A stretch of 62,636 bases of DNA, filler included, from Hausera hauseri (Eukaryota), in the NCBI GenBank assembly GCA_046269625.1. It is 12 parts of 12 records of this genome, joined end to end, with 100 filler letters (N's around TTAATTAATTAA, not from the genome) between each part and the next. Parts side by side here need not be neighbours in the genome. Positions count along the whole stretch, not along the records: positions 14,145 to 19,468 come from JBJURY010279396.1; positions 19,569 to 24,754 come from JBJURY010313608.1; 10 more parts are not named here. One strand, written 5' to 3'. Numbering within the stretch: position 1 is the stretch's first letter; the number at the start of each line of letters is the position of its first letter. Below, piece after piece: positions 7,667 through 58,170 of the stretch. The translations under genes were made by a program, and so were the position numbers. The notes under the pieces were generated by a model that saw only the letters and a program-made list of their open reading frames with translations, did not search any database and was not told the origin of the DNA.

Positions 7667-7827
7667 ATGGCCACGACTGCAGATGGCTGCGTTCAGTTCA
7701 CGCGGCACGCAGGCGACGTCCTGCTCAACTTCAACCGGCTCCGCAGCCGAAACCTCCTGACTGACGTCACCATTCAGGTGGACGGACAGCTTTTCTGCGC
7801 TCACAAGACGGTCCTGGTGGCTTGCAG
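7667..7827 (+). CDS. bcl6: BCL6-family BTB/POZ transcription repressor, first coding exon (teleost-like)
   Basis: [53 protein letters not shown] matches the BCL6 N-terminus; GT donor at 7828. Confidence 0.92.
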
Positions 7828-7909
7828 GTACATCAGACTGTTACTGTGACTCTGCTGCTCTGTTTTCATTGTTTTACTAACAACCTTTTTGGTTTCTGAC
7901 TCTCCACAG

Positions 7910-14044: not shown

Positions 14045-15159
14045 NNNNNNNNNNNNNNNNNNNNNNNNNNNNNNNNNNNNNNNNNNNNTTAATTAATTAA
14101 NNNNNNNNNNNNNNNNNNNNNNNNNNNNNNNNNNNNNNNNNNNNTATGGAATTAATAGAAGCCACTGTTATTAATATCCCGTATAATTGATTCATCAATA
14201 TCATACTTTTGAATAATTTCATCGCATATCTCATTTAGTTTACTTTCAGAATCTTCACCATGAGTTCCTTTTAAACTATCTCCATCGATGGTAGGAATAA
14301 ATTTATCCAAATTTCTTGAAAATTCGGAACTAGCAAAAGATTGCTTTGCCCATTCAGAAAAATTAATCCCATCAGATAAACTCTTCAGATCAAGCAATTC
14401 TGTGTTTGATGATATATTAATTGTCTTAACGCTAGATAAAAAGAATTTGTAAACAGTTTCACAAAAAGAAAACTCCATTTTGAATTTTGGCACTAAAAGA
14501 TTTATTTTTGTCTAACAAAATTTCAAAACTCTTGGCACAGTAAAACAAAATCAGTTCCAATCAAGAAAAAAAACGAAAAACAAAAAATATAGTTCATTTA
14601 TATATGCACATGTACAACAAACGCCACAATGCATGCACACCGACTGCCACATGTGTTGCCCTGCCATTTTCTCGTGCAGAACGCAAAAGAATAGACATGA
14701 ATAATGTCGGTTTTATGCATGATTAGAACAAGTTCTGCCCGAGGAACCACTGCTGTTCAGAAGTCTGAGATCCTGCTTGTTCTTCATATAGCACTTTTCA
14801 CTACCCCACGACCGCCAAACAAAACCCGGAGAAAAGGGAGGCATTCGGTCCCGGACTTGCGCGTCGCCAGGGAACAACAAACACCCGATCTCGTCTCGCA
14901 AGTGGGCAAACCATGTGGTCACCACATCATCCCTCGTGTCTGAGTTGAAATACTCTAAAGTACTACAAAACGAGAAGCAGAAGCGGAAAAGGGTGAAAGT
15001 GTATTTAAAAGTGGACTGTTTCAAGGCGTTCAGTTTCCGGTTGGTATTTTACTCTGCACTATTTTTTGAATATTTACGGTTTTGCTTGCTCGTATACGTG
15101 GCTTGTTTGTTTGCAACTGATTTTGGTGTAAAACCGATGTTAGTTTTGGGATTGTGTTG

Positions 15160-15540
15160 AGTGAAAGTAGAAATGAAGAAGTATGTGTCAAAGGAGGATG
15201 AGACAAAGGATGAAAAGGACTAGAGTTTGAGAGAGGAGGAAGTTGCGATGTGGAAATGAAAGGAGTAGAAGATGGTGTGTTAGGAAAAGGGAGGAAAGAG
15301 AGCGCCGACGATGACGGAGGTGTGGAAGGAGAAAGAGAGAGGACGCCGAAGAGGGACAAGACGGAAGAGAGTAAGAAGATAAAGATGGTGAAGGAGAGGA
15401 GTTGGAAGGTGACATGCAGGAGGTTGAAATGATGAAAGGCGTAGATGGAGAGATTGGTGAAGTAGAAGTGGTGATTGGCGGAGAAAGTTTCGTAGGAGGG
15501 AAAGGCAGGTTGCCATCAGGGGATTAAGGAGGTGTTAAGA
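15160..15540. repeat. Purine-rich low-complexity tract (Ser/Pro-rich on minus strand) downstream of Gypsy integrase
   Basis: GA-rich composition; ORFs here are low-complexity. Confidence 0.6.
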
Positions 15541-15759
15541 GGCTTGAAGGTGCAGAATTGGATGGGGAAAAGGGGATGAACTGTCAGAAAAAGTTAAAGT
15601 AGAAGGATTGAGAGAAAAAGTAGGGGAAAGTGGATTAAAGGATTGAACAGAAATTTGCGAATTTTTGGACTGCTGCGCGTCGTGTAAAGATGTTGGTGGT
15701 GAAATGATCTCGATGGGAGACATATCGTTAATGAAAAGAGCTGACTTAATGTTGTTGAT

Positions 15760-17620
15760 GTGCACTGTCACTTCTTTGTCGTCTTTGAGGATAATGACGT
15801 TATGGAAATGTAAACGAATTACTTTGTAAGGGCGAATTTACTGAGGTTGAAAACCACACGGCGTCCTATTCTTTAGCCATACGAACTTAGCAGTATATAA
15901 ATTGTCGGGTATGTAGCGTTTATTTCCGTGTAATAGTCTACAAAATGAGTCTTTGCTAATCACAACAAAGTGTCTCTGGGCCGCTTGTATGGTTTCGTCT
16001 GTAGGAATATTTTCCAGCTCAACCAGCTCGAATAATGGTCTGATAGAAGTACCAAATAATGCTTCTGCAGGTGAACAGCCTGTAGAAGTAGATGGTGTGT
16101 TCCGCCAGCCAAGCAGAACCTATGAAAAGAGTGTAGTCCAACTGCGATTGGACTAAGCCAGGATTTTGAGATACGCTTTCATCGTTCGGTGAAAGTGTTC
16201 GAGAAGGCCATTCGATTGGGGATAATATGGTGATGTTGGAATGTGGTTAATTCCAAATCGATTGACAAGAGCTTTAAACAGGTTGGATTCGAACTGTGGG
16301 CCTTGATCCGAAATGATGTGGCGAGATGATCCAAACCTGCTGATCCAATTGCGTATGAAAACGTCTGCCACTGTTTCTGTGTTGGTACTCCGAAGCGGGA
16401 CAGCCTCGGGCCATCGCGAGGAACGGTCCATTATTGTGAGGATGAAATAATGGCCGTTGTCTAAGGGTAGTGAGCTTACGAGGTCAATGTGAACAGATTC
16501 AAGACGAGACGTGCAGGGAAAATGATACAGTGGTGGCTTTAAGTGCTTAGTAACTTTGTATTTTTGGCATGCCACACACTGTATAACCCATGCCTGCACC
16601 TCACAGCGCATAGACGGCCATAGTACTTGGCGTTGTAAAAGTCGAAAAGTGGCCTTGGCACTAGTACGGCGAAACGAATGGATTTTGTTGAATGCTTCTT
16701 TTTGAAGCGATTCAGAAAGGATGACTTTAGGATTATTAGGATTGGAGGTGTCAAAGGCCACACCGTCGATGGTTTTGCATGATTTAAAAGATTTAAGGAT
16801 GTCAGGAGATGGCTGGTTTTCTAGAAGTTTGGATTGAGGGAAAATTGATGTAAAATCAATCGAGCTGACTGATCGGGACAAGAAGTCAGCTACTAAATTT
16901 TTGACTCTGTTTAAGTGCTTAATTTCAAAATCAAATGCGGATAAATACGATATTTGTCTCTCCTGACGTAAAGAAGGCGATTTCATGGTGAGAATTTGAA
17001 GCAAGGGTTTGTTGTCCGTTTGTGTTGTAAAAGTTTTGTGCGGTTAGCAGATGCTTGAAGTGTTTTACGGCAAGGATCATTGCAAGCAACTCTCTGTCAA
17101 AGGTGAAATATCTTTGCTCTTGTGCCGTGAATTTCCGAGAAAAGAATTCTAATGGCTCATTGGATCAATTTTTGACTTGATGGAGGACAGCACCTACAGC
17201 TGTTGTGGACGCATCCGTGGTTAAGAGTTCTGCATGGGGGTCAGGATACGCGAGGATTTACACGGTTTTTAGACTATCTTTGAGGTGATCGAAAGCGTTG
17301 GCTAGCTTAACGGTCCATTAAATACGCTGCTTTTTCTTGCCAGAGCTTAGTGATTCAGATGGAGCAGTTAGAGTGGAGCAGTGTGGAATATACTTATGAA
17401 TAAAGTGCAAGGTTCCGAGGAAAGAACGCATCTCTGTTGATGTACGTGGCAGCTGTATGTTTTTGAGCTGTGTGATGCGCTCTGACTGAGGTGAATGTCC
17501 GGAGGAGCTAATAACATGTCCTAGGAAGTTGTCCTTGTGTTGAAAAAAAGAGAATTTGGAGGAATTAATTTGCAAATTGTTTTGGTGCAAGCGCTGGGAA
17601 ATTAAACGTAAGTGCTTAGT
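15760..17620 (-). mobile_element. Degenerate Ty3/Gypsy pol fragment (RT end - RNase H - integrase)
   Basis: NFLGHVISSSG...RSFLG (17318-17836 ORF); TDASTTAVGAVL...FDRELLA (17050-17220); integrase ORF 16153-17004. Confidence 0.9.
16153..17004 (-). CDS. Gypsy RNase H C-terminus + integrase (HHCC-like and DDE core)
   Basis: NLVADFLSR, WPSMR...CVACQ, VHIDLV, DRSSRWPEAVPL, ISDQGPQFES, YYPQSNGLLEHFHRTMK. Confidence 0.9.
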   Translation of the reverse strand: MLQILTMKSPSLRQERQISYLSAFDFEIKHLNRVKNLVADFLSRSVSSIDFTSIFPQSKLLENQPSPDILKSFKSCKTIDGVAFDTSNPNNPKVILSESLQKEAFNKIHSFRRTSAKATFRLLQRQVLWPSMRCEVQAWVIQCVACQKYKVTKHLKPPLYHFPCTSRLESVHIDLVSSLPLDNGHYFILTIMDRSSRWPEAVPLRSTNTETVADVFIRNWISRFGSSRHIISDQGPQFESNLFKALVNRFGINHIPTSPYYPQSNGLLEHFHRTMKAYLKILA

Positions 17621-19683
17621 ATAGATCTGCTGTTGTATATAGGTATCGGTCGCAGCTCCTTTGATGTAAATAATATGGTTAAAGCATTCAAAAATTTTAA
17701 CTATGTTTTGTTGGTGCATTGAAATGTTACTTGTTAGATTTCTTTGAACCAACAATGTTTTATCATTATTTCGTAAATTCAGGGCTTTGAAATGTATTGC
17801 AAGCAACAATGTAAGTTTATGTTGACTGGTTTTCATTATATGATCAAAGAAAATTCACATAAAACCTTCTGATATATATTTTTGATAATTCAATCACAGT
17901 GTAAAAATTTATTATTAGATATTGTTTTCTTAAAACAAAGTTTCCAGCTGTGATCCACTTGTAATGGGTTTTCGTGTGCACGACCTGCACGCGGGATGTC
18001 TCAATCTGGCAAATTCATCGGAAATTCCCCTGGACAAAAATGATTTGTAAAACAGATCTTGTTTTGCTTTTAAACATCCTCCCTCCCTCTTTCTCCCTGG
18101 GGATTCTATTTCTCTGTAATAGTTCACAAAGTATGCAGACAAGTTTGCATCTGTTGTAAAAAAAAAAAAAAAAAAGAACGAGACAGTTTTGAAGAACCGC
18201 GAAGGTAGAACGACTGGAGCAAGTGTATAACAAAATGATAGTTTAATGTCATAGTGAATATAATCACTGTTTTATTTTAAAGAGAATATAATCCCTCTTT
18301 AGAAAAAAAAAAGGATCTTATGCGACAAACTACGAAATAGAATTATCGGCATCCCGAATAAATGTGTCGCCTTGAAAAAAGGCACGCTATTTTTTTTTTT
18401 TTATAGCGTGACAGAAATCGCAGATTGAATCATATCAGGAACATCTCTTATGGCCAGAAACCTAGGCTTACAAACATTTACGAGGGAAACCCAGGAAGAG
18501 AGGCTTTGGTGTTTGCATTTCAAATATTACACGATTCAAAACCTGAGTACAACTGTGATGGTGACAAACGATTTTTTTTTCCACTGGTGTAAATGGAGGA
18601 GACAACCTGTCCTGGTACCAGGGTAAGCTGCCATGAAAATGTGGTCCTGTTAAAAGGGGGCGATAAATTCCAATGAGAAAATTTCCCTAATAGTTAAAAA
18701 TCGAAAAAGGGGTACTAACGAGCGAAAGAAACTTTTTTATTGTAAAGGTAAAGAAAGGGGCTGCCATAAGGCAACGATACGGTCATGCAATATAACATAC
18801 AGGTAAACTAATACAGTACAAAAAATAGAATGTAAAAAGAGACATTAACAGCATGTCTGAAACGGGTGGTGATAAGATTTATCATTTACTGTGGTGGTGC
18901 CAAGACTCACAGTGTGTGCTGAAAAATATTTACTGGCGTATGGTGAGTAAGAAATAATAATAAGAAGAAACTATTTTCAAAGGGTTGAGAATTGGGCATG
19001 CAGGCCCGTATTACACTCTGCCCTTCGAAAGAGTGGTTAATGAAGATTGGTTAATGAAGAGTGGTTAAAAAAGAAAGAGTGGTTGGTGCTTCTAGACAAG
19101 TTCATGCTTAGCAATATGTCACGGACATACGTTCTGGATCATACTTGAGTGAGAGGAAATGAGAAAGTAGATAAGATGGCTAGAAATTATTTGCACACAG
19201 TACCGAGAAAGTAAACTGTGGTAGGAGGAGAGAGAAAGCATTGGATGAACATTATAGCGCTACAAGGTTGTGGGGTCGATTCCTACTAGTGATAATCGAG
19301 TCTTTTTCAGACCAATTGGTTCCACCAGTTTCAGAAACTGATAATACTGTTTAAAAAAGTAAACTTTCTTTTGATTCGGGGACATATTGTGTCTTCCTAA
19401 TCCCTTATGACAAAAATAAAGAGAAATTCTCTATTGTCCCACACGGTCTTTGCTTTTGTTGTTTATAANNNNNNNNNNNNNNNNNNNNNNNNNNNNNNNN
19501 NNNNNNNNNNNNTTAATTAATTAANNNNNNNNNNNNNNNNNNNNNNNNNNNNNNNNNNNNNNNNNNNNACAGTATTTATGACTGTCTCTGCAAATGTTTT
19601 TGTAATTGATAGATTTTTGGCATTATATTCTTTTTTATATTCTTTCTTTTGTTCACTCGAAATTTTGATTGCTTTATCCAAAG

Positions 19684-21830
19684 TTAAAACTTTTCTCTGT
19701 CCACTAAGTATTCGAGTTGAGTTTTCCTCATTACTATAATCGCATTTGTTTTAGTCTTTAATCTCGATAACGCGTCAGCATCGACATGTTTACTACAGGG
19801 CTTATATTGAAATTCAATGTTANNNNNNNNNNTCGTGAGATCTCTGATCCATCTGTTGAGTCTGCATGTTGGATTGTTTACCCATTCTTTCAAAGTCGTG
19901 ACGGCTTTATGATTGGTAACAATTATAATTTTCTGTCCGTAGACATAGGCGTTAAAATGTCGCAGCGCTTCTTTTACAGCCAATGTTTCTAATTCCATAA
20001 CTGAGTAATTTTTGTCGGCTTTCTTCAGTGATCGTCCATCATAAGCGATCGGGTGCTGCCGTTCTTCGTCATCTCTTTTCTGGGCTAATTCATATCCGAT
20101 ACCTTCTTTACTGGCGTCAGTTTTAATAATAAATGGAAACCTAAAATGAGGTTATTTTAAAAATAGTTCACTTTTAAAATTTTCTTCATTTCATCGAAAG
20201 CATTTTGTTCGTCCTTTGACCATTTACATTTAATTCCCTTTTTAGTAAGCGGTACAGAGATGCATTTATTTTTGAATTATCTGGCACGTATGTAGCGTAG
20301 TATCCACACAAACTTAACCAATTTCTCAACTCCTTTTTGGTTTTGTGGTTCCACATAGTCCGATATCTTGTTTAATAATGACTTATCCGGTTTCGATCCT
20401 CCTTCTCCAACTAAATGTACAAGTTAGGATACTGCATTTCGGACCCATTTATATTTTTTAGGATTTAACTTTAATCATGCTTGCTCTGATCTCTTGAGTG
20501 TATCTTTTAAATGTTCTTCCGTTCTTGATGCGATCAATGCGTCATCTAAATAGGCAAATGCATGATCAAGTTCCATTAACATTTTATTCATCATTCTTGT
20601 GCTGATCCAGTTGTAATTCCGAATGGCGTTATAATAAATTAGTATATACCATCGTTAATTTTAAACGCCGTTTTATAACGGTCATCTTCAATTTCTACTT
20701 GCCAATATCAGGATTGTAAGTTCAGAATGGTAAACCATTTTGCACCCGAGAGTCTGTCTAAAGCTTCCTTTACTGATGGAAATGGAAAAGAATCTTTCAT
20801 CAGTAGAGCATTCAGTGCCGTACATTCAATACAAAATCTATGTTTTGTAGAACCTTTCTATTTGACCGTAAGTATCGGCGAATACCAAGATCGGTAACTT
20901 AAACTAATTGTATATGCTTTTACCATTTGTTCAACTTTTGTTATTTAGTATTAGTGAATGTGGCTGTGGATACCACTTAGGTATCTTTTGGTCCTCGAGA
21001 TCAATCTCGTCGTTAGACCTAGAGTTTTTCTTTAGTGGGGTCGTTAATCTCAGAGCTTTAGCTGTACCAATATATTCTTCCTTCGAAATAATTTATTTAT
21101 AACGGCGCAGACGGTCATAAAAGCGACAATAGGATTCAGATGAAAACTTGTTCTTAACATGAGGTGGAAATTCAGTGCATTTATAAGGTTTTTCTTCTAT
21201 AGTTATTGATTACACTTTATATGTATGGGCTAAAATAGTATTAGAGTATAGTTTGGTCGGAATTGGCGCGACCTGTCTATACTCTTGTCAATGTGTTACT
21301 GAGTACAATGCTTGGATTTAATGTTTCTTTTGGTTCGAAATATACTGGCTGGTCATCATCTTGTCGAATCCGTACATAAATCAGCATTTCTGTTCTGGGT
21401 GGAATATTTTCACCTACTGGAATCCACACTTCTCCGGATTTTTTATCTTTTGTAGTTTTTACTCTTTTTAATGATCCAAGTTCCATTAATTTACCAGCAT
21501 GAAAATCTATTGCCACATTTGGTAATTGTCTTACCAAATCATATCCTAACACTACATCGTCCGTTAGTTGTTCCATTATTAATGAAATGATTATCCTATC
21601 ATATGTATTTCGGAATTCCATCTGTATTCACATATTGAGGTCTGTCCAAAAGCTCCAATAATTTCTGGATCTGCTGCTGGAGACGAGTATAGTTGTTTTC
21701 GTAGAACCTGTAGTATCGAGTCATATTTTATCAGTGATATTTCGGATCACATATATATTAGTGCACAGACTTCCAAATCTTCTATATTAATTTTAGCGAA
21801 GGGTCTGCATTCCATGATTGTACCATAAAA
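19684..21830 (-). pseudogene. Gypsy pol: aspartic protease, RT, RNase H (fragmented)
   Basis: RPFAKINIEDLEVCALI, DVVLGYDL, RFCIECTALN, PFGI, AFAYLDD, KTDASKEGIG, ELETLAVKEALRHF, HVDADALSR. Confidence 0.9.
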
Positions 21831-22479
21831 GATCGGTGCTACTTTAGGATGCTTAATTACTGATACTTTATATCCATTAATTCTACTTTTTGGTGTCGTA
21901 ACCGGTTGATGAATTAACTGCCTCAATTCACCATTCGGATATAGTTCATTATTTACACAATTGACAGTTCCTGTTTCTTGGCTTCTGATTATTGGTTGTG
22001 ATTCTTGGTTTCTGAAAGTTTGCATTTCGCGGTCTCTTGAAAACATTGATCGTATTTCATTAGTTCTGTGTTTTTGGCGAATACAATATTTTATAGTCGT
22101 CAAATGACTGGCATCCGAACGGAGCATATGTTTATTTTTCTTCACGCATCTTCCATAGTACACCGTAATGTTTCATTCCGTTGTACGGATCTTCAAAACT
22201 AAACGGTTTTCTATAGATGCACGCTTGATACGAACTCGTCGATCGTTTATCGCAATCTTCATATATCAGTTCAGATGGCGGTAATATCGGCAACCGTGGA
22301 TTTATGACGGAGTACTTTTTGTGTCTAATTAACCTGGAGATGGCGTCTCCTGTCTTAGGCTCTTCATTACCCGAATTGTTTTTTCGCTTTTTCTGGTTGA
22401 GGAAAAATGTAGGTTTCTTTCATCGTTCACATTTATGATAGTCAACATGACGTTGTGCATCAGTTATCCACCTGCTTTC

Positions 22480-24290
22480 ATCACAAGCCCTTAACAATTT
22501 ATCGAACGGTGTTATAATTGCAGTCAAGATTTTGCATGAAAATCCGGTAAACGTAAATATCTCGTATCAATTTATAACTGCTTGAATTACGGCTTTGATT
22601 AATTGTACTAAGAAATAGATCGCTAAAAATCCAGATGCTGTTTGTACGGAAATTATAAATCTCCAATTTTTGTGTATTTCGGTGGTTACTCGTTGATAAT
22701 TATTTGCACCAAGTAATGATTCCCATTTTGCTTGATAGCGAATATCGTCTACAATTGCAGACATGGCTCGATTTAGGTCGTGTGTTCGTTGACATGGAAA
22801 AGCGATAATCTGTCTAAAAGCTTCAACGTCCTTTGGTCTATAATTGCCCTTTGTTGGGGTATCCTGAAATTTATCATCCGTTATTCCTTTTACGATATTG
22901 GTTCCTGTTAGTTTGTTAGTGGCAACATTCAGGCCCCCATTCAGTAGACTTACCCAATCCGTTTCACCACATCTAAACATGGGTTCTCCTAAGCTCGATT
23001 TACATTCTTTTAAGATTGTTGGCTAAGTTGCTTTAGCTAACAAGGCCCTAGTAAGTGACATAGCTAATCAGGATGTATTCTGGTACAAAACTGGAAGTTC
23101 TTGTATACACCGTTTTTCTTCGACATTAATAGTTCATCTCTCTTTCCACATTCATAAGTTAACAGGACTTTGCTCGTGACTCGACCGAAAATTCCTTCTT
23201 TCATTTGAATTATTGGTGACACTAATTCAGTATTGGTACAGATTAAAGCCAGTTTCGTTCTCATGATTTCCATATCTAATTTAAATCGTACGTTATCATT
23301 TTGCGGTATAGTTCCGTTATTCCGACTTGCCCTTGTAGTAGAAATAATCGTTTCTGTTCTCCACGTTATCTTCGAATCGTACATCTTGTGTTTCTTACTT
23401 ATGTCCGTGCATTTATTTCGGTTTCCGCTACAAAAAATGCCTCGTAATTTGTCTCGTGCATTACTACTTCGCAAAGTGAGAGAATTTCTTGATCAATTTT
23501 AATCCATAAGGGTCAGAAATTAGTATAGTTGGTGTAGCGTTCCTCCACGTCTTCTCGTGTCCTTATGCTACTATCTATCTTGTTCACATATCGGTTGCCA
23601 GTCATATCATTGAACTCCAGTTCCTTAACTTTGATGAAATTACAATCTTTTCCAGACGGTGGTTCCCAGGTTATGGCTGAACTCTTAAAAGCCCAAGTAC
23701 CCTACTGTAAATGACATTTTTGGTTTTCGAGATATAGTTTGGTGACGCTATGACACATCACTTTCCTTGTTTGCATTTCAGTTTCATAGAAATATACAAC
23801 TACCACACCTCCTTCTTTCCTTCTTCCAGTGTCGTATTATACGCCACCACAATATCCGGTATGGATGTATTATTTTCCCGCTGCTAATTTAAATGATCTA
23901 ATTATTTTCCCTTGCTGCAGTTCGAGTTCCATATCGTCTTATTTTAATCTACCGGTTTCTGTAGCTTGACTACAGTGTTGTCTTTCCAAGCTCATTGGGA
24001 TCGGTGGGGTTGGATTATTGATGGATGTCCATACATCTGTCAACAATGCAAAACACTACAAGATCTACGTAACATACATTCTATTCCATCTAGCGAAATC
24101 ATTTCACGTTATTGATATAGTACGTAGCTTTTCTCTTTTGATTCCAATTTATGTGGGCTGTCATCTCCAGACGTTTCCAAATCTATCAACGAATATTTTA
24201 GCCAAGTTTAAGTTTGTCACAGTCGTATACCATGATAACTCCCATTTATTTTATCAACATCATCGGGGTTAGAAAGTTAATTAACCAACT
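22480..24290 (-). pseudogene. Chuvirus-like (class III-type) envelope glycoprotein, decayed
   Basis: Signal-like WLINFLTPMMLI then MVYDC; GIECMLRRSCSVLHC; GYCGGV; AITWEPPSGKDCNF; EGIFGRVTSKVLLTYEC; CLQELPVLYQN...TRAL...EPMFRCGETDW; DVEAFRQIIAFPCQR; TM GFLAIYFLVQLIKAVIQAVIN. Confidence 0.7.
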
Positions 24291-24854
24291 TTGTTCGTTT
24301 CCTCGGTTATGACCCGTCTAATTTCGTACCACATTCTCGAGTCTGCTAGAGGATGACTTATTTTGGTATTCTTCCATTTCAAATAGTTTAGTCCAGTTTA
24401 TTTCTCGAAGTAATTTTCTGGCGGCTTTCCCTGCTACGTTATTAGCTCTGTTAAATTAATTTTCTCGCGTTGGATTTGTTTTAATGTCCAAATACAGTAA
24501 TACCTTTGTTAATTATTCTGTTATTTTCTACCGTGATCTTCTCAGTCACTGTTCGATCCGTTAAAGTGTTTTTAAATAATCTGAAACGAGAATTTCTCAT
24601 TGTTCTGACTGCGTTATATATAGCTTTTTCTCTTTCATCTGGTACATCGTCACGGAGACTAGATTATTTCATGATACGCATTAAATTCTTCATGAGTTCG
24701 GTTAATTCTTCGTTATCCGTGTTGAAAGTAGGTACAACATTTGCTTTAGTTCTCNNNNNNNNNNNNNNNNNNNNNNNNNNNNNNNNNNNNNNNNNNNNTT
24801 AATTAATTAANNNNNNNNNNNNNNNNNNNNNNNNNNNNNNNNNNNNNNNNNNNN

Positions 24855-25624
24855 CATTTGGCTGCCAGTGTAGGTGATACAAGTGCGAGGTCGATGACAC
24901 TGTCAGAATCACCCGGTCTGCTCGCCAATCTCGTCGCCCTGCCATCATTGGTGCACACCAGGTCAGCTGTTACAAGGGCGTCTTCTAAGTCCTCGCCTTG
25001 CTTGTTAAGGGTGACATTTCCCCACTGCCTGCCTCTGGCATTGAAGTCCCCACAGAAGATTATGTTCTTTTCATCCCGTGCGAACAGACTTTGCCACATG
25101 CTGGTATCAACCTTACCATTGCATGCGTACACGTTAACAACCAGTAAGGACACTGGGTCTTCCACTCTGACAGCGTGGGTCTGCAAAGCTTCATTGTTCC
25201 AGCTGGACATGTCCACCTCCGAGGCCCTCAAACTATCACGTACGAAGATGGCCTGTCCACGATGTTGTCTGTTAAAATATGCCTGGAAGCCCGCCACTCT
25301 TACTGTCTTATCATTGAGGTTGGTTTCTTGTAGACAGACGATGTCGGAGCCGTATACAAGTTTGTCAAGAATAGGTCTCCGTTGACTCACACTAGCGATG
25401 TTCCAATACATTATGCGAATATTTTTACGGCCTATCCTTTCACATTTCGTTTTTCTCCTGCTGCAGCCCGCTCGCTTCCCTCTCTGTCTCCCCTTACCTC
25501 GAGTTCCTCTGAATTTCTTGTTAGTTGTTTTGGTTGACATAGTTTCGTTCCCACGCTGACGGGATCCTAGCAACGCGGATCGCTGCGAGTCAGCACAAGC
25601 ACTGTAGCGACTGCGCGGATCCAT
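24855..25624 (-). CDS. Apurinic-like endonuclease (APE) N-terminus of a non-LTR retrotransposon, truncated by contig end
   Basis: IMYWNI, DIVCLQET, VNVYA, IFCGDFNARGRQWG, SVIDLALVSP. Confidence 0.92.
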
Positions 25625-25758
25625 TCCACGCTAACGACTGATACACCTCAGCCACACAGCCCCTCGGCACGTGGAAAAACCTTGGGCTTGGTAGATAACC
25701 GTTTCAAATCGTTTGCTGGATGGAAAAACCGACCTCTATCTGCGTAAACAGAAAAGAA

Positions 25759-38373: not shown

Positions 38374-38913
38374 TACAACAATTAGAACGAAACGTAAATG
38401 AATGATTCGGTAAACTGGGCAAAAAGATGAAAACTATGCACCCATATGGCCGAATAATCATATACTTACCGTCATTGTTTATACTATGATGCTNNNNNNN
38501 NNNNNNNNNNNNNNNNNNNNNNNNNNNNNNNNNNNNNTTAATTAATTAANNNNNNNNNNNNNNNNNNNNNNNNNNNNNNNNNNNNNNNNNNNNGGATCGT
38601 TGACTAGCAGTCAGTAGTCGGCTTATTTTTATGTTTCCGCTGGTCATTGCCTCTACCATTAACTTAAATCGGCCTTCCACGGTCGGTGGTAGATGACCTT
38701 TTTTTCTTTGACCTTGATTTCCATTTGTCCCATCACAGTTGGGTGGGTCTCTATCTCTCTCATTCCGGCTATGTGCGTTACTGGTATGTTTAATTTTTAT
38801 CATTCTTTCTACTTGATACCCCACTAAGACGTATCCGTAGAGACACTATGCTACTTCCTCTTAAACTAATTTGGAATCCTTTTTGTGGATTAATTGTTTT
38901 CTTTTAATCCCGG

Positions 38914-39189
38914 TCACTCCGCATATGTTTCTTGTACTTTGCTTCTTGGGTTAATGATTTTCGGATAGAATTCGGCCCCGTTTTCTTCTCGTATGGATAT
39001 TTCAATTGGGATATAATTTCCTTCTTCTCCTGCTCCATAATTTACTGCGGCAATCCTGAGATTCCTGTCATAGGTTACCAATCTAAATGAGTGTATATGT
39101 GCGTCCTGTTCTTCAGTGAGTCTTTGTTTAAACTCTAAGGGCGTCAATAAAGCGGCTATTGCTTCCTCTTCGGTTATTTCAACCATCAT
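38914..39189 (-). CDS. Unknown accessory ORF fragment
   Basis: 91-aa ORF, co-oriented with the element. Confidence 0.35.
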   Translation of the reverse strand: MMVEITEEEAIAALLTPLEFKQRLTEEQDAHIHSFRLVTYDRNLRIAAVNYGAGEEGNYIPIEISIREENGAEFYPKIINPRSKVQETYAE

Positions 39190-39282
39190 TTTTACAGGTA
39201 AGGTAGCTACTCGAAATTTTTGCTCGTAATTGTGGAAATTTCTACTGTTAAATACAAATGTGCTAAACCGGCTTTGTCTTCC

Positions 39283-39624
39283 TTAAAATGAATCCCATTT
39301 TTGGTCTTTCAGCCGATAATAGATTTCCCCGTCTTCTAAGTGTACATATATTTTCTGTTCCTTATCCATTCGGTGTTGGGTGATCTGTTTCAAAGGGTAT
39401 GCTCTGGCATACTTGTCCTCTCTCCAGGCATATAAATATATAGCTCTGGCCTTTTCAGTTGTTCCTTTTAAATTGTTTGGTATACCGTCAACTTTTTTGT
39501 ACTGGATGAAGTTTTGTCCTTGTAATTCTGTGTTGATTTGCCTACAAATGGCTTTGGAATTTGGGATCCGGACGGTTACGTACTGTTGCAGAACTTCGTC
39601 GATGCTAAGTCGACTCGTGTTCAT
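39283..39624 (-). CDS. Unknown accessory ORF of Gypsy element (probably continues via frameshifts into 38914-39189)
   Basis: 113-aa ORF preceded by a splice acceptor; no motif recognised. Confidence 0.45.
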   Translation of the reverse strand: MNTSRLSIDEVLQQYVTVRIPNSKAICRQINTELQGQNFIQYKKVDGIPNNLKGTTEKARAIYLYAWREDKYARAYPLKQITQHRMDKEQKIYVHLEDGEIYYRLKDQKWDSF

Positions 39625-39743: not shown

Positions 39744-41150
39744 TCAGATTATTTTATCATATGGGTCTACAGGGTTTTCCAATTCCCTTAGTTCCCATTC
39801 TGAGTTTTTATGACGCTTAGAATAACAGTTTTTGGTGACTAATCGAAAAATCGCAATTAGTATAATGCGAACAAATGTTGGCAGTACCGTGATAGATACG
39901 ATTGGTAGTGTAGTTAGTCCCATCGGTACTTGTGTGGTGACCAGAGTTGTGATCCGCTCATCTATATCCTCATATGTATGAGATTCTGTGCGAATTTCAT
40001 CTAAAGTTTGCAATGTAATGGTCTGATTTTGCTTATTCTCCGCACATATCTGTACTATATATTCGGCTTGTGGTTTTAATAAATTGCATTCTGTTCGATA
40101 TTTTTAAATAATTTCACTACTTGATTATTATACGTTGCCCGACAACTTATATATATATATTGTAATTTTGTTTCTCTTCCACGAAGAACACAATCTTAGA
40201 TCGATATGCCGAATATTTAATGGGGATACTTCCTAATTCTCTTTTAGGCACATTGGCCGATGTAATGATTGACGTAATGGTACTAATTTGAGTAGTTGGC
40301 CTCCTGGTGGTCGTCGTTACTAAAATTTCCCAATTTCTATTTTCTGGATAGTAAGTTCTCAATTGTACACTTGGTTTATTCGGCTGTACTTCATATAAGT
40401 CAAATCTTATTCTAAACTCTCGGTTTAGGGGTATTTTACAGCATGGTTTTTGCATGCCTGCTCGAATAGAACAATATTCTATCTTCGGGGTCGGTCCAAC
40501 TGTTGCTTCAAACGTGATACTAATTTCCTTACTGAATGTTAATCCTGTTCTAGCGTCTGCTTGAATGCACTGTTTGTCCTTAATCACAGTGATTCTCTGA
40601 ATATTTTCGTCTAGTATTCTTATCTCTGGGTCAGTGGATCGTAAGATTTCATTCAGTTTTACTCCTTGATGTCTGTTCCATGCAGGAATGACTAATTGCA
40701 AATGTGGTTTCACTTCAACATAAACTTCAGTTGAGTCTGGCAAGTATAGACGATAGGTGAGGTTATAAGTACGTCCAAAGTCTATATCGCAACACTGCGC
40801 ATTTTCTCCAGGTTCAAAATCGCAATTTTTCGTTCCTCTTGTGGTTGTGTCAAGTAAGACAATTTGAAATCTTCCGAAATCGTGATGCGGTTTCCAAGCT
40901 TTAAATCCAACACATACGGAGTTTGGCGAATAGTAATGAATTGTCATTGATTGCAGTAATTTAGTGTCCTCTTGTTTTTGAACTTCTGCTGTTGGCTTCT
41001 TTTCCGTCTTGGTAGTTTCCGATTTCGATCCACTCTTCCGAATTCCGTATGTCTCCTAACAATGATTCATCGTACCACCATTAGGCTTGTGTTCTCGGGA
41101 GGTAGGAGGCAATCAACGATAATACTAAGACTATCTGAACGTATGATATT
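39744..41150 (-). pseudogene. Putative type I membrane protein: signal-like peptide, 2-3 FN3-like domains, Thr-rich linker, TM helix, short tail
   Basis: SYVQIVLVLSLIASYLPRTQA; internal repeat NCDFEPGENAQCCDIDFGRTYNLTYRLY / YCSIRAGMQKPCCKIPLNREFRIRFDLY; ECNLLKPQAEYIVQICAEN (FN3 signature); LPIVSITVLPTFVRIILIAIF. Confidence 0.6.
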
Positions 41151-41236
41151 GGTCTAGTAACTATCGATGAAGTTTTTACTTCACGTTGACGTAGATTATA
41201 ACGTTTGCTGGGTCGTATTTCTGTCGTGATAAATCT

Positions 41237-43424
41237 CTATATTGACACAACTTCTTTTCCATTTTTGTTAATATATACTGTAGTTGGCGTAGCCTTTGTA
41301 ACCTCGTACGGTCCTCTACCTATACGAGTCAATTTTAGTGAGGTGCCTTTTTTGGCTACTGGGTAATGCACATAAACCCAATTTCCTCGTTCTATATCAT
41401 GCGGTTTCGCTTCCTTATCATATTGCTTTTTAAATTGTTCTTGATATTCTTGTGATAGTTCTTTGGCAATTTCCCAACACTTTTGTAATCGCGTTTGTAT
41501 CACTTCTCCGAAATTCTGTTCTAAATCTTCGGAATTAACTGTGCCAGGTGTCATTACTAAATCCGTGGGCAACACGGCTTCACGTCCGTACATCATAAAA
41601 AATGGCGTAAACCCTGTCACTGGATGTGGCGTGGTATTAATTGCAAATTGCGTTCCTTCCAAAAATTCGTCCCAATCTTTTTGGTCCTTAGACATACTGT
41701 AGACAGTATACGTATGACGGTAGCATTCATCCGTTCGACCATTCCGTTACATTGAGGATGATATGCAGTAGTTGTTAATCTCTCGATTTCGAATATCTTA
41801 GTGATTTTCTCGAATAATTCACTAATAAAATTTCTTCCTCTATGCGTTAGTATTTGGTCTGGGGGTCCGTATCGACAAATAATTCTTACAACGGCTTCTG
41901 CCAAGGTTTCGGCTTTCTGATCTATCAATGCTATCAATTCGACGAAATGAGTTAATCGATCAATACACGTTAAGATGTACTTATTGTTTTTGTGGGTCGT
42001 AGGGAGGGGTCCTACAATATCCATCGACATAGCTTGCATGGACCTATCGGGCACATTGATTGGTTTTAATTCAGCCACGTAGTTTTTCGTCTTTTTCTGT
42101 TTAGTTGCACACACTTCACAAGCATTTACCCAATTTTTCACATCGATATGAATGCTAGGCCAGAAGTATTTATTCATTATTCTTTCTAACGTCTTCCAGG
42201 ACATGTGTCCGGCTAAGTATGAATCATGTTCTGACATCAGTACTTCGGTTCGTAAACTCCGGAATAACTATCAGCTTCTTTCCCTTTCGTTCGTAATATA
42301 AAATGTCTCCTTCATTTCCGCCGTTTAAGACGCAGTATTTGTGTCCGTATCTGTGTAAATGTTTCTTTAATTGTCGCCCGTTTGGTATAATGTCTTTTTT
42401 AGCAAATTCTATAATCAGCTGGATAACTTTATCCTTCCTGTTCTGTTGAAATCTTGATTGCTCTATCTATTGTTAACACGCGTTGGCGGTCTATTATTTC
42501 TTCAAGTTGACTTTTCTTCATTACTGTGATTGCGCTTATTTTAGTCTTAAGTCTCGATAGTGCATCGGCGTCTACGTGTTTGTTCCCTGGCTTATACTGA
42601 AACTCAATGTTATATCTGGAGATTTCTTCGATCCATCTATTTAGTCTGCAGGTCGGGTTATTGGCTCGACCCTTTAAGGTCGTAACGGCCTTGTGGTCGG
42701 TGACAATTATAATTTTCTGCCCGTAAACATAAAGACTAAAATGTCGAAGTGCTTCTTTTACTGCTAGAGTTTATAATTCGGTAACAATAATTTTTCTCAG
42801 CCTTCTTCAAAGAACGTCCTCCATAAGCAATTGGATGCTCGAATTCTTGATCCTCTCTTTTCTGTGCTAATTCATATCCAATACCTTCCTTACTGGCATC
42901 TGTCTTAATTATGAATGGTAAACTTAAATCTGGGTATTACAAAACAGGTTCACTCGTTAATATCTTCTTCATTTCAAAGGCTTTCTGCTCGACGTCTGTC
43001 CATTTCCATTTAATCCCTTTTTTAAGCAGACAACATAGAGGCGCATTAATCTTTGAGTTATCTGGTACGTAGGTTGCGTAATATCCCCAGAGTCCTAGCC
43101 AGTGTCTCAACTCTTTCTGATTTTGTGGTTCCATGCAATCTGATATTTTGTTTAATAGTGATTTATCCGGTTTTGATCCTCCGTCTCCAACTATGTGACC
43201 CAAGTAGGATACTGCATTTTAAGCCCATTTGCATTTCTTCGGGTTTAACTTCAATCCGGCTTGTTCCAATCTCATCAGTGTGTGTTCAATATCCTTTAAG
43301 TGTTCTTCTTCTGTTCTCGATATTATCATCACATCGTCTAAATATTCAAAAGCATGATCCAATCCCATTAACATTTTGTTCATCATTCTCGTAAATATGG
43401 CTGGTCCGGTAGTAATACCGAACG
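41237..43424 (-). pseudogene. Gypsy pol (RT C-terminal half, RNase H, integrase)
   Basis: YLDD, LGHIVG, TDASKEGIG, HVDADALSR, HDSYLAGH...CEVC, MDIVGPLP, HPQCNGMVERMN, GPYEV. Confidence 0.93.
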
Positions 43425-45539
43425 NNNNNNNNNNNNNNNNNNNNNNNNNNNNNNNNNNNNNNNNNNNNTTAATTAATTAANNNNNNNNNNNNNNNNNNNN
43501 NNNNNNNNNNNNNNNNNNNNNNNNTTAAATTTTATTGCTCATTAGCATGTGTTACAGAATGAACTATGGAAAAGCCAAATATACAGTGTAATTAATAAAA
43601 TCTAGGAAAGCCATATCTTTAATAGGTTATTTAGGAAAATAGATAATCAGTAATTATACCTTCAATATGGAAATTAGACTGCGATGACTCTAATTGAACG
43701 TCCATAAAAATCATCGGAAAAATTGATATACTTGTCAAAAAACAACAGAAAACCTGAGATCAGAACAAAATCGGAAAGCAAATAAAATAAAATAAAGAAC
43801 ATCACAATGCCTACTTATAATCAGACTATAAGTCGAACCAAAGTTAACAGACAGATAAAATCGACAATTGTTATTACCTCGAAAAATTGTTATCGTGATC
43901 TTTCGTTATTTCTTTAACTGAATTAAGAGAAATTGTTATTAAGTAGGCAGAGTGAATTATTGTGTAGATATCAAAATTTCGCAGAAAAGTTACTGGAGAA
44001 AACTTGGCTCAGGATTGTTCTTTGAACGATATTCCTGTATTCAATTAACAATTGCCGATATGCTATATTGATCCGTATAAAACGACTCTATACGTCATAC
44101 GCAGACTGTATTGTATTTAAATATATTGTGCATAATAAATTTCTTTTAGTTTCCCACCGCCCCTTAAAGCAGGTTCGACTTCATTAGGCATAAAATTTTA
44201 TTTAACAATAAGTAGAAAATGGGAAGTCTGCACCACCACCCTCGGGGTGTGTGGGAATCGATGAAATCAATATAGCACATGTGCCAATCGATAGTGCACA
44301 TGGAGCACTATCGATCGGTAGGGTGCTAGGCGAAGGGGATGTTAGGTACCGTTTCTAAGCACATTTTTGCACATTTCACAAATCGATAGCTGCATATTGC
44401 ACAGTTCGTCGAATCGATCGGGACAAAGGATTAATTGATAGTGCACATCAAGCCGAATCTTCATATACACTGTGCAGGTGCGCAGCACATGTACAAGTGT
44501 GCAAAAATCAATAATATCGGTTTCGATATACGATGCATTATGTGAATGTGCAATTAGAATTTAAATCGATCGAGTCGATTTCGAATAATATCGATCCAAA
44601 TTGCAACTGGTACAGGCTTTCCAGTTTTAGGTCCCAAGGAGTCAAAATTCGACAAATGTTTAAAAGGGAACAGATAGGAAGTGCCACATTGTAACCCGGG
44701 TCCTCCATCTCAAATTTCCGAAATTCGATGGACAATTCGAATAAATATCGATTTTCACCAAATAGTATCGAATATCTTGACACCCATAAATTTTTTGAGA
44801 AATTTGAGAGCGCCAGTCGATTCCCCATGCACCTTTCAGATCTACCGCACATGTGCAAATGTGATTTAATCAATAATAAAGGTTTTCCGATAAAACCTAT
44901 AAAGTTGATTTTAGCACACAAGCTAGTGGAAGTCGAAAAATGTAAAAGCGTACACACAGAAACTAACATGTGCTGTATCCGATTATGACATCAAATATTC
45001 GAAAACTCGAATACAAGTCGAACTTTTCGAATAATTGATTTTCTATTCGAATAGAAGCAAAAATCGAAAAATCTGAAGGCGGAGAAGGATAGAAACCCAG
45101 ATATGTAGAATTCGAATATGACATCAGATATTCGAAAAGAGGCTGAAATAAAAAAGCCGATTTTTCGATTGAATTCGAATATTCAAATAGTACCATCGGA
45201 TTCCTCATGTTCGAAAACCTTTGTAGACCAAACATAGGGTGTACAAAATATTTAAAAGTGTCTCTAAATGAATAAAACATTGAAAATTTCGATACTATTC
45301 GGTCAAGCATGCATTATTGGAACAATCTGATAACTCCAATCAATTGTATTAATACCTATTTAGCGCCAAAGTGCATTTAATTTATTTTATGCATTAAAAC
45401 AAAGTGTTATAGAATGTTCAAAAATTCAAAATTTAAAAATCCATAAATGAGGCAGTATGCGTTGATTTGGCTATGTTTCATTATTTACAAAATCACTTAC
45501 AAGAATAGTGAGATTTTTATTTGTGCTCCTCAAATAATT

Positions 45540-48500
45540 GGTTGATTTTTAGATGTGAAATCTATACAAACAGTGCTTGGCGCAAATCAACGAGCTCAAA
45601 AATTGCCACAACATTATGCAGAAATACTTCAGCCATCTATACAACAGGGCTGAGTATTATATATGCCCTACATGTGAGGTAGTGTGCAAGACCAAATATG
45701 AAGACTTTTACATGCCCATAAACAACACCTGATTCCCTTCTCTAAGTCGAAAAAACAAGTATTCAACACAACTATGACAATAATGACTTCAATGTCTAAG
45801 CAAAATCAAAGATGCAGTTCATACTTGTATTGCACATGCGCAATACACAACCCTAAGAACCGTCATAATACTATGAGGAGCTATTATGGATATAAATTCA
45901 ATAGGATCCTCTATTATATATCCCCAAAATGTGAGACTGTATCATTTGAGTCACTTCGGATCAAAGTCAAGGAAAGCCATTTTTAATGAGCAACATAAAC
46001 TTGATGAACCTGCTTCGCAACATGATGATTCGCAGTATTCTGCCGAGCCTAGATGAAGTCGCGAAATTTGAAAGCGTCAACAACATCTCCATCAACATCT
46101 TTGGATTGGAGGAGGAAAAATTTTATCCCCTACATGTGTTCAAGGAGGAATTGGATGATAATATGGATCTGCTCCTGCTAGATTATGGAGAAACGAGGCA
46201 TTTCATCCGGATCAAGAATTTTGAGCGCATTGTAGGATCCCAAATATCCAGTCATAAGTCAAGGCTGGAAATCTGCAAATGATGTCTATCCCATTTCAGT
46301 GGTGACATGGCCTCGGCGAAGCTCAAGGAGCATAAGACCTATTGCAATACGAACTATTGCATCCGAGCAGAATTACCCAAGGAGGATTACCTGGAATTCA
46401 AAGAGTTTGAAAACGTTGAAGATGCCGATTGTCATATATTGTGACTTTAAAACTATCCTCAGCTCAGTTCACAGCTGCACTCCGAATCTGCAGAAAAGCA
46501 GATCGACAGCTTACCAATATCATTAGCTGTCATCATACTGCATGTATGCATTAGTCATGACAAGGAGCCACCCCTATACCGGGGTTTAGATATAGCGCTT
46601 CATTTCAAGAAGCGCTTGGAGGAAATTGCATATAAAATCGAAAATATGCATCATAAATGTAAGAATACTAAGAAAATGTGTCAGGAGGAGAAATGTGAAT
46701 GTCAAAATGCAACACAGTGTTACCTGTGTGAAAAAGCCTTCACATTACACAATCACAAAGTCCGAGATCATTGCCATACAACCGGCGTGTATCGAGGCGC
46801 AGCGTGCAATAATTGCAATCTACGTTGCAAAACATGTACATATGTGCCTGTAGTGTTCCATAATCTCAGTGGCTATGATTCCCATTTCATTGTTCAGGAA
46901 CTGAACAGCATTGAAGGAAACATTGATGTGAGTCCTAATAGTGAGGAAAAATACATCACCTTTACCAAGCATGTTGGGAAAATCAGGCTTCGCTTCGTAG
47001 ACAGTTTCCGTTTCATATCGTCTTCACTTGACAGTTTAGTGAAGAACCTCCTTGCAGAAGAACTTATGGAGACGAAGCGACTCTTCACTACTACATTTGA
47101 CCTTGTTAAAAGGAAAGGTGTGTTTCCCTATGACTATATAACATCACGGGAAACATTGGATGAGACCCCACTGCCGGCCAAGAAGGACTTTTACAATATC
47201 CGCTCAGACAGCGATATCAGTGATATGCGCAGAACGTTTGGCATGCATTTCAATGCCAAACAGAGACATATACTCAAGATGGACGTGCTGCTGCTGATGG
47301 ATGTCTTTGGGAGCTTCAGGGATGGTACGATGAAGAACCATGCATTGGATCCAGCTCATATTTTTAAGGGTACAGGAAAGAGTTTGGCAGCTAGGCTGCG
47401 CTATACATGTGTCCGGCTGCAGATCATAAAGGATTACGACATGATCCTCATGACTGAGAAAGGCATTAGAAGGGAATATGTCAGGACATTCACCGGTATA
47501 GCGAGGCCAACAACAAGTATATGTCCCAGTATAATCCATACAGGAAATCCTCGTATATATCATACCTGGATGCCAACAACATATATGGTTGTACAGTGAG
47601 CGCCCCATTGCCATATGATAACTTCAAATGGGTCGAGCATCCTGAAAATATCCCTATACTGGACCTGGATCCCACTGGAGATACGGAATACATACTCGAG
47701 GTGAATATGGAATATCCGGTTTCCATCCATGCAGGAAATCAACAACTGCCTTTCGTTTCTGGGTGCAAGCCTCCGCCTCATGGAAAGCATAGAAAGCTGC
47801 TCTTCCATCTGGAAAGTAGGGAAAGGTATATAGTCCACTACAGAAATTTCCAGCAAGGTGTCAGGAATGGATTCCGCATTACGGAGATCCATCTGGACCT
47901 CCAGTTTATCCAGTCCAACTGGCTGCAGCCGTACATAGATCTTAATATGAAACTGAGGACAAATGCCAAGAACGACTTTGAGAAGTTTTAGTTCAAGATG
48001 TACAACAACAGAGTTTTTGACAAGACCATGGAAAATATCCACAAAAGGATCAACATCGAACTGGTCTGTGAGTGGAAGCGGGCAAAAAAGCTCAATGCCA
48101 AGCCTAACTTTTACAGCAGCACCATATATGCGGAGAACATGGTCAGCATCCATATGCTGAAAACATCGCTTGAGTTAAACAAGCCCATATATGTGGGTAT
48201 GGCAATACTGGGCCTGTCAAATACCCTGGTGTACAAATTCCACTATGACATCATGGTCTCACATTCAAGTCCATACAGCTGACGTACATGGACACTAATA
48301 GTTTCATCTATCAAATCCATACTGAGGACATTTATGAGGACTTTGCTAAGTTAGCACAGCATATGGATACATCGGACTATCCGAAGAAGCATACCAACGA
48401 GAAAGTCCTTGTGAAATTCAAAGACGAGGTGAATTTGGCAATCATCTCGAGATTTGTGGCTCTTAGGTCCAAAATTACGATTGATGTATGTAGTCAAGTA

Positions 48501-48743
48501 AAGAAGAGAGCTAAAGGGGTTCAAAAAGCGACCTTAGCCAAGAAGAATGGCTTCAATGACTATATGCAAGTTCTGCATAAGGCGACTCATATCATATCAG
48601 AGATGCGAAGGATCAAGTCTAGGGCTCACAACATTGAGACAGTAACATTACAGAAGAAAATCTTAGATCGGATGGATAACAAAAGACAAATCCTGGATGA
48701 TGGAATAAGCACATTACCTCACGGGCATGTTGCATTAATGTAA
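45540..48743 (+). pseudogene. Polinton/Maverick-type protein-primed DNA polymerase B with N-terminal endonuclease VII-like Zn motif, decayed
   Basis: KFESVNNISINIFG; VIYCDF; VRDHCHTTGVYRGAACNNCNL; FHNLSGYDSHF; RFVDSFRF; RKGVFPYDY; YLDANNIYG; NKPIYVGMAILGLS; YMDTNS; KRAKGV. Confidence 0.93.
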
Positions 48744-49700
48744 ATATCTTTGCTACGAGATGCTGTATTTTTTGTATTAATAAATCTTATAAAAATATCG
48801 TGATGCCTTCTTGATAAAGTAATGTGGTATATAGGATAAGGCAAAGCAAATAAATAAATAAATTAGAAATTCAAATAAAAAATCAATGCAGAGAAAAATG
48901 ACAAAAACATGCCCAGTTTGTTTGAGTAGATGGTAGAAAAGACAATGCATATGGCTACTTGCAACACATACATTTTTTGTGGGACGTCTTCAGAAATGGT
49001 TACGTCGTAAAATTTCATGCCAAATATGAAGGATATTGCGATTTTGTCCTTAGTAGATGGAAGTGAGCACACTGGATCAGCCCCGCCCCCGCGGAGAAAA
49101 AATTGATGTGGTTCGCGGATGAGTCATGGGGTGGAGATGGGATATTTTCGACACACACTCACAAAGTGGATACACACAAGTAAGTGTACTGCATGGCTTT
49201 TAGACACGTGTAAAAATTTGAATTTCGCGCCAAACATTTTTTGTTTAAATTTTGGTGGTCGGGTATAAATATATATGTGTGCAAATAGCATGGCATTGTT
49301 TCAACAAATAGTACGACAAATGGTATGTTTTTAATTCTGCTTTCCGAAATTACTTTTATACTTAGAATTACAAAATAGATTTATAAGCTGATATTAAACG
49401 GCAAACAAATGAAATATGCAATGGGGAAATTTATTGTGTCCAGTTTTTAAATAAACTGGAGCAACAACACTTTCTACCAAACGAAGACTATGTAGAACTT
49501 GTTGTTGGATCGATATTAATGACAAACATTAAAGAGGAATATAGAAAAAGACAGAAAAATGTTTTACTTGTATATAGTATTCTTACTGGTGCATTTGTAA
49601 NNNNNNNNNNNNNNNNNNNNNNNNNNNNNNNNNNNNNNNNNNNNTTAATTAATTAANNNNNNNNNNNNNNNNNNNNNNNNNNNNNNNNNNNNNNNNNNNN

Positions 49701-56056: not shown

Positions 56057-56592
56057 ATGGCCAAAAGAAAATCGGAAAGTGATGGTAGTAAACCAAGAAT
56101 TTTTTATTTGTTAAAATTTCATATAGAAATCATTCTGTCAGCAAAATTGAGCAGAATTGATGAAGTTTTATCAAGGGGAAATAATGCCCTCATGATGCTG
56201 AATGAGGTTGGTATCAAAGGACTAAAATGGAACATGGAACAGATCAAAAATTCTGTCCCACAAAAATTCCGAGCTACATGTCAATTTACCGAACCATTTG
56301 CTGGACGTGACAATGTTATCCAAACTGGAACGATGTTTTTTTCCGATGGATTAACTAAAGCGGCTTGTAAGCATGAAATTGCCGAACAGATTATCGGTCG
56401 AATTGCTGGGAAATCGTCAAATGGTGTTGTGAATAACATTCCAGTGGAAAAATCGGCTTTATCATCGGATGCTCCCAAATTAGAGGAATCTGTTAGAATT
56501 TCAAACGAGAAGGCAAAAGATTCGGAATATAAATTTATTCTACAAGAAGATGGATATTCGTGTTATGTGGATTTTCGTAGAGTCGTTGTCAA
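56057..56592 (+). CDS. ADAR: ADAR-like gene, 5' exons with dsRNA-binding domain (probable 57-nt intron 56085-56141)
   Basis: MAKRKSESD; NALMMLNE...FRATCQF...F.SDGLTKAACKHEIAEQII dsRBD pattern; exon 3' end approximate. Confidence 0.65.
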
Positions 56593-58149: not shown

Positions 58150-58170
58150 TGGGGGCCTCTCGTCCGGGAT
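58150..58170 (+). promoter_or_regulatory. tRNA-Pro-like primer-binding site
   Basis: TGGGGGCCTCTCGTCCGGGAT vs canonical TGGGGGCTCGTCCGGGAT; follows ...TACA. Confidence 0.7.

Follow-up and report, generated by a model that had tools for sequence, protein, structure and literature searches.

Whether a viral-type glycoprotein gene that lies beside a retroelement pol gene belongs to that element is the question raised by a locus of Hausera hauseri (GenBank assembly GCA_046269625.1). We analyzed a stretch of 62,636 nucleotides (the window), which is made of 12 short contigs chained by N44-TTAATTAATTAA-N44 spacers; neighbours in the window are not genomic neighbours. The focal element, at 19569-24754, is exactly one contig (5.2 kb) between two spacers, and both of its ends are assembly ends. 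Its minus strand carries, in this order, a decayed chuvirus-like glycoprotein gene (env), a protease (PR), a reverse transcriptase (RT) and a ribonuclease H (RNase H), and the contig stops before the integrase. We conclude with high confidence that the contig represents a dead piece of a Ty3/gypsy-type element, in which an env of the herpesvirus glycoprotein B (gB) fold precedes PR-RT-RNase H, is likely native, and probably formed part of a gag-env-pol order.

A decayed chuvirus-like env upstream of a Gypsy-type pol

The env gene (22372-24284, minus strand) was identified as a decayed, chuvirus-like glycoprotein of the predicted class III (herpes gB-fold) fusion type. A single-frame piece at 22132-23133, with stops written as X, matched PF24664 (Monjiviricetes_fusion) at an E-value of 9.8e-19 and 67 bits (cutoff 27); two other env pieces (P0002 and P0003), scanned singly against Pfam, gave no PF24664 match. 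In place of a frameshift-aware reconstruction, profiles were searched in all six frames. Using a profile from 12 intact relatives, ordered pieces over 24284-22372 were found to cover positions 13-655 of 678, with a top score of 107.7 bits compared with at most 1.5 bits in 30 shuffles, and 13 of the 18 conserved cysteine columns covered were retained. The gene starts with a signal-like stretch (approximately 24287-24228) and has a predicted transmembrane (TM) helix on its C-terminal side (22573-22629, minus strand; Kyte-Doolittle 2.15), which aligned with the TM region of the relatives. Decay has left about 11 stops and 5 frame pieces over 630 codons, the piece limits being approximate.

The motifs of env are split among three minus-strand frames and include YDC (24227-24219) and CxxxxxxxxxHC (24078-24043); further motifs on this strand are CIQELPV near 23109, PMFRC-x4-W and FRQIIAFPCQR. 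A preliminary description of this DNA had listed these motifs and read them as a chuvirus-type glycoprotein about 650 bp upstream of the protease. All of them are present, one having been slightly misquoted (CLQELPV for CIQELPV); the PF24664 match and the ordered cover of the relatives' profile bear out the assignment, and the spacing between the glycoprotein match and the protease is correct. The structural comparison with viral fusogens that had also been suggested was run on a relative, P0018, and matched both herpes gB and chuvirus G. The AlphaFold2 model of P0018 (mean predicted local distance difference test score, pLDDT, 73) retrieved herpesvirus gB from the PDB (best E 4.5e-14, TM-score 0.33-0.39), and its best match among viral models was the chuvirus G of Tacheng Tick Virus 4 (E 1.8e-42).

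Env lies upstream of pol on the same strand, with a gap of approximately 0.6 kb (<2 kb). The env-protease linker (21811-22371, minus strand) contains one stop and a frame switch, has the same A-rich make-up as env and pol, and showed no homology to the linkers of the relatives. The aspartic protease, which has a broken active-site motif, and the spacer that follows it (21220-21810, minus strand) were recognized by profile and by tblastn to P0011, P0041 and P0044. The protease is the weakest part: the active-site piece gave an E-value of 0.16 (21806-21693) and the next piece 2e-12 (2.3e-12; 21579-21292). The spacer matches the PR-RT spacer of the relatives. The decayed RT (20175-20941, minus strand; YLDD at 20552-20541) was assigned by tblastn, with 33-46% identity to the relatives, and by its position in the RT tree. 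The RNase H (19711-20163, minus strand), after which the contig ends, matched PF17917 (E 4.9e-28) and PF17919 (E 2.1e-22). These matches, together with the grouping of the RT with Ty3/gypsy-labelled proteins, agree with the earlier assignment of a Gypsy-type pol. The Ty3/gypsy order PR-RT-RNase H-integrase is found as PR-RT-RNase H on the focal contig and RT-RNase H-integrase on a 74%-identical sibling contig.

Upstream of env, the segment at 24285-24754 (minus strand) is cut by the contig end. Relatives have a BCL2-like domain here and gag further up; the BCL2-like profile gave an E-value of 1.3 at 24464-24285, which is the expected place but not significant, and the segment had no blast match to relatives. 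The earlier remark that no gag or CCHC motif is visible between env and pol was borne out by a six-frame check, in which CCHC was absent from all frames of the focal contig, and by a gag profile, which scored -4.5 bits, compared with at most 1.1 in shuffles and 11.3 on a positive-control contig, over a contig with just 470 bp upstream of env. By analogy with the relatives, gag and the long terminal repeats (LTRs) would lie beyond the upstream contig end and the integrase beyond the downstream end.

Over its whole length the focal copy contains some 18 stops and several switches of frame, unlike the elements with intact open reading frames (ORFs) that PMC13524379 admits. The stops make it a relic, which lowers the case for an intact errantivirus and not the lineage claim; it is a dead, divergent member with approximately 45% RT identity to its best relatives. 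The contig is not CpG-depleted (observed/expected ratio 1.12). Sibling CpG sites were changed in the focal copy at 12/62, compared with 60/295 for other C/G sites, which is no excess; the reverse comparison (focal against sibling) gave 22/68 CpG sites changed against 34/261 other C/G sites, which is an excess. Though mixed, these CpG figures lean against a vertebrate host; such a host, from a group in which elements of this kind are not reported, is highly improbable.

Intact relatives encode env and pol in one polyprotein

Relatives are labelled here P (proteins) and L (loci), P0011 being HBK71150.1. An HMMER search with the env piece over 1.84 billion representatives returned 30 matches, 14 of which were scanned against Pfam; a word-indexed search with the same piece gave no match. 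A retroviral-type protease was found C-terminal to the glycoprotein in the same protein in 8 of the 14 scanned, including 7 of the 9 best matches. Of the remaining two among these nine, one has a DTG motif by eye and the other is a 203-aa fragment. In seven proteins of 1251-4844 aa (P0011, P0016, P0017, P0041, P0044, P0167 and P0168), a single ORF spans env, protease, RT and RNase H, and six of these also have an integrase. P0015, P0025, P0167 and L003 have gag or CCHC upstream of env. Pfam matches of the relatives further included ubiquitin-like domains (E 0.005-0.018) and a Bcl-2-like domain (E 0.001), both weak, and ankyrin.

Cluster members and metagenome loci enlarged the set of relatives. 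Scanning metagenomes with the env alignment yielded 3 loci out of 394 pattern matches, and the same scan with P0011 yielded no locus; scans of viral contigs with the env alignment and with the sibling RT likewise gave none. Terminal repeats were not found in L001-L003, which are themselves cut.

Several relatives have features of their own. P0041, P0015, P0017, P0168 and P0009 contain two to four or more aspartic-protease domains per polyprotein, some of them after the integrase, and P0041 (4844 aa) has ankyrin and C2H2 matches. The gag-env-pol polyprotein P0011 is filed under a Flavobacteriaceae metagenome-assembled genome and is likely to come from a mis-binned animal contig. In P0036 (1000 aa) the PF24664 glycoprotein stands behind immunoglobulin domains, possibly as a domesticated gene or a mis-called fusion.

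Env is very likely native to the element

Env is very likely native and not a nested insertion, because its relatives are single-ORF polyproteins and the RT and env trees agree. Relatives' polyproteins aligned collinearly by tblastn along the focal contig, from env through RNase H, and this alignment and the gene order on the contig support the env-before-pol layout first proposed. The RT-RNase H tree, made by a quick method, had 109 rows, consisting of 105 of 158 database proteins (those with at least 340 aligned residues) and four window copies. The focal and sibling copies fell within an 11-row group that holds all env-pol polyproteins (Shimodaira-Hasegawa-like approximate likelihood ratio test, SH-aLRT, 97), and their RT-RNase H was nested among Ty3/gypsy-labelled proteins in this tree without a BEL or Copia outgroup. 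In the env tree (35 rows), a branch with 100/99 support placed the focal env with all 14 polyproteins and five unlabelled fragments, and 15 other chuvirus-like glycoproteins on its other side. Stop density is alike in env (11 in 630 codons) and pol (7 in 405; piece limits approximate), and both genes are equally A-rich on their shared strand (0.37-0.38). Related contigs of run X1 (6031, most of them at <95% identity) cover env and pol alike, in 30/30 bins of the focal stretch. The RT phylogeny that had been called for thus grouped the focal copy with env-pol polyproteins, and neither of the outcomes named beforehand as fatal, namely a lack of any fusogen match or a glycoprotein belonging to a separate nested insertion or standalone viral element, was observed.

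Several points weigh against this conclusion. The RT group also includes P0116, a nematode-labelled protein without env, the branch shared by the focal and sibling copies is 1.11 long, and neither BEL nor Copia served as outgroup. The end branch of the focal env is long as well (2.88), and the gB fold of the focal env would follow by homology from P0018, the model having been made for the relative only. The focal contig itself carries neither LTR, gag nor integrase. Its env-protease gap amounts to approximately 260 codons, compared with 89-172 aa in 9 relatives. Among the run X1 contigs listed, none spans env to protease, and the cover was 51-330 in the linker compared with thousands in the env and RT cores.

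One alternative concerns expression rather than origin. In the focal copy a stop closes the env frame and the protease is read in a different one, as would fit a native env that had its own ORF or was linked to pol through programmed frameshifting or splicing. Many Gypsy elements express pol via a frameshift. The main text of PMC13524379 also treats GAG, ENV and POL as ORFs. However, env and RT share one ORF in 7/7 relatives that have both, and at least 2-4 low-depth run X1 contigs do not show the linker breaks of the focal copy, which weakly fits a decayed continuous frame. We consider a separate or frameshifted env unlikely, and the earlier suggestion of one polyprotein probably holds.

The drop in run X1 cover and, among the contigs listed, the missing bridge across the linker are also what a nested insertion or misassembly would leave, with the glycoprotein being an independent endogenous chuvirus gene, or a piece of some other element, beside a Gypsy pol. 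The assembly is fragmented, and the linker is longer than those of the relatives and without homology to them. Against this stand the nearest env relatives, which are themselves fused to protease and pol, the two trees, which point to the same lineage, and the strand, decay level and base make-up that env and pol share; an insertion or misassembly is therefore highly improbable. A purely stand-alone endogenous viral element was rejected, as env groups with retroelement envs and is tied to pol in its nearest relatives. Finally, an env-gag-pol order in which the 550-bp linker would conceal a short gag, for which the linker's excess length and the short GAG of arachnid ENV-GAG-POL elements (two mites; main text of PMC13524379) could be cited, is scarcely credible given that neither CCHC nor a gag-profile signal occurs on the focal contig and that relatives carry gag upstream of env.

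A predicted second membrane protein after the integrase

The sibling contig (38594-43424, minus strand) provides the 3' half that is lacking on the focal contig. Its RT-RNase H (42345-43422, minus strand) showed 74% nucleotide identity to the focal copy over 1001 columns and formed the sister row in the RT tree with a support of 100. The integrase (41174-42267, minus strand), in the Gypsy order RT-RNase H-integrase, was found by tblastn to P0011, P0017, P0041 and P0044 at 32-43% identity. Next comes a predicted second membrane protein (39846-41164, minus strand) composed of a signal-like stretch, a beta-rich ectodomain, a Thr-rich stalk and a TM segment, with hydrophobic segments at 41164 and 39902. 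A trailing ORF (39079-39522, minus strand) bears a weak likeness to the accessory RNase_T-like exonuclease ORF located after the polyprotein of L001 and L002; it was the best match of the whole window (independent E-value 0.022), at a score reached by 0/100 shuffles. The accessory ORFs at L001:10617-12104 and L002:12085-13470 gave RNase_T (DEDD-type) exonuclease matches and are 37% identical to each other.

A signal-ectodomain-TM unit ends all six relatives with a full integrase (6/6). Hydropathy gave the TM segment in 5/6 and the signal in 4/6 of these terminal units, the rest being assigned by eye. P0168 has an additional unit of this kind between its proteases. The sibling ectodomain had no significant sequence match to the ectodomains of the relatives. 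An Atlas feature search pointed to FN3 clusters for the sibling ectodomain (0.85) and for L002 (0.87), which are leads only, and the model of the post-integrase ectodomain of L002 had a mean pLDDT of 37, with a beta-sandwich-like part at 50-63.

These features raise the possibility, which we put forward tentatively, of a two-glycoprotein lineage: a polyprotein with a gB-fold fusogen before pol and an FN3-like, mucin-stalked type I protein after the integrase, with fusion and attachment split between them. Herpesviruses and paramyxoviruses divide fusion and attachment between two proteins in this way. Were the second protein indeed to mediate particle attachment, the choice of target cells by such elements would be explained, and the glycoprotein layout would be one that our literature search did not find described for LTR retroelements. 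That search, which took in the main text of PMC13524379 and the Burro account of PMC6431247, found no description of a post-integrase second membrane protein of LTR retroelements. The predicted second membrane protein, conserved in the intact relatives and the sibling, is the part that deserves specialist attention.

Proposed expression of the polyprotein

Judging from the hydrophobic pattern of the relatives, a single polyprotein was probably translated, in which gag would be cytosolic and followed by an internal signal, the env ectodomain and a TM segment, with the protease(s), RT, RNase H and integrase again on the cytosolic side. The internal signal sequence would send the env ectodomain into the endoplasmic reticulum, and the TM segment would return the chain to the cytosol; signal peptidase and the protease of the element would then release Gag, Env and Pol. 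With env as a putative class III fusogen, budding particles might fuse with nearby cells, the germline or stem cells being the probable targets. The second signal-to-TM protein after the integrase, predicted from the sibling and the relatives, may serve attachment.

Other contents of the window

Two unrelated decayed Gypsy elements lie at 14145-19468 (minus strand) and 58071-62636 (plus strand), the latter with the ordinary gag-protease-RT-RNase H-integrase order. Decayed Polinton/Maverick-like pieces were found at 43525-49600 (plus strand) and 34020-38493 (minus strand), among them a type B DNA polymerase with endonuclease VII and, by eye, integrase-like and capsid-like ORFs. Non-LTR elements are represented by an open 665-aa RT ORF at 29733-31730 (plus strand), which we take to be RTE-like, and by the endonuclease ORF of another element at 24857-25630 (minus strand). 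A BCL6-like BTB exon at 7682-7843 (plus strand), presumably of vertebrate type, shares its contig with a decayed non-LTR-like element that has a Ulp1 protease domain. At 55952-57900 (plus strand) lies the gene of an ADAR-like deaminase, very divergent and carrying a long insertion, for which a word-indexed search gave no relatives. With these two genes on contigs other than the focal one, the window may be a mixture of organisms. A 48-bp satellite array fills the contig at 49701-53875, with one similar unit at 109-153, and a tRNA-Lys(CTT) lies at 26068-26140 (plus strand).

Comparison with known systems

The preliminary description implied that an env-before-pol Gypsy element would be rare and offered tunicate Tor elements as precedent. 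This order is already published (PMC6431247; PMC13524379), and the relevant precedents are Burro and the GAG-ENV-POL Ty3/gypsy elements. Troyka was dropped as a candidate, since the available text of PMC12440569 describes terminal features and no env-before-pol order.

Planarian Burro (GYPSM1) is a giant Gypsy element with an env that is akin to mononegavirus fusion proteins and sits between gag and pol in the same frame; the account in PMC6431247, which refers to Grohme et al. 2018 and to Jurka 2007, also gives it accessory ORFs as well as domains of ubiquitin-like, BCL2-like and ankyrin type, and terms its PR-RT spacer dUTPase-like. The present lineage resembles Burro in having a PR-RT spacer and, in the relatives, env between gag and pol, accessory ORFs, ubiquitin-like, Bcl-2-like and ankyrin matches, and ORFs of up to 4844 aa. 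The relatives share the one-frame trait, with env in frame with gag/pol, whereas the frame of the focal copy is broken. This likeness is one of description and not of sequence comparison, and the Burro account in PMC6431247 has no second membrane protein after the integrase.

Captured glycoproteins of the same family are also found on Anakin BEL/Pao elements (Dezordi et al. 2020, as described in PMC7642597). The focal element shares with Anakin a chuvirus-type glycoprotein on an LTR retroelement but differs in its pol, which is Gypsy-type (PF17917, PF17919). A BEL/Pao pol was rejected on the RNase H matches to these two families and on the RT relatives, which carry Integrase_H2C2 and, where named, are mostly Ty3/gypsy-type; none of the Pfam scans of window pieces or relatives returned a family named after Pao. 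The focal env resembles the G proteins of Chuviridae/Jingchuvirales (PF24664) in sequence family and in its class III fold, as predicted through P0018. Unlike these, it resides in a retroelement and groups with retroelement envs apart from other chuvirus-like proteins.

Another close published class is that of the GAG-ENV-POL Ty3/gypsy 'ancient errantiviruses' with a chuvirus-like herpes simplex virus (HSV)/gB ENV, reported from Nematoda, Bryozoa and Platyhelminthes (Chary and Hayashi, eLife 2026, PMC13524379). Its main text credits the nematode elements to Sacco et al. 2022, describes an ENV-GAG-POL order for two mites, reports no elements from vertebrates, and does not use the words 'fibronectin', 'Burro' or 'polyprotein'. 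The focal element shares with this class a Ty3/gypsy pol, a chuvirus-like env of predicted gB fold, env before pol, and a multicopy state. Unlike the intact elements of that study, with which it was compared by description, it is a decayed fragment, and their figure supplements or baits may already hold its lineage. The focal element is thus one more decayed and divergent case within a published class, which matters little as such, and it lends support to the idea that Gypsy elements with env before pol are ancient and occur widely.

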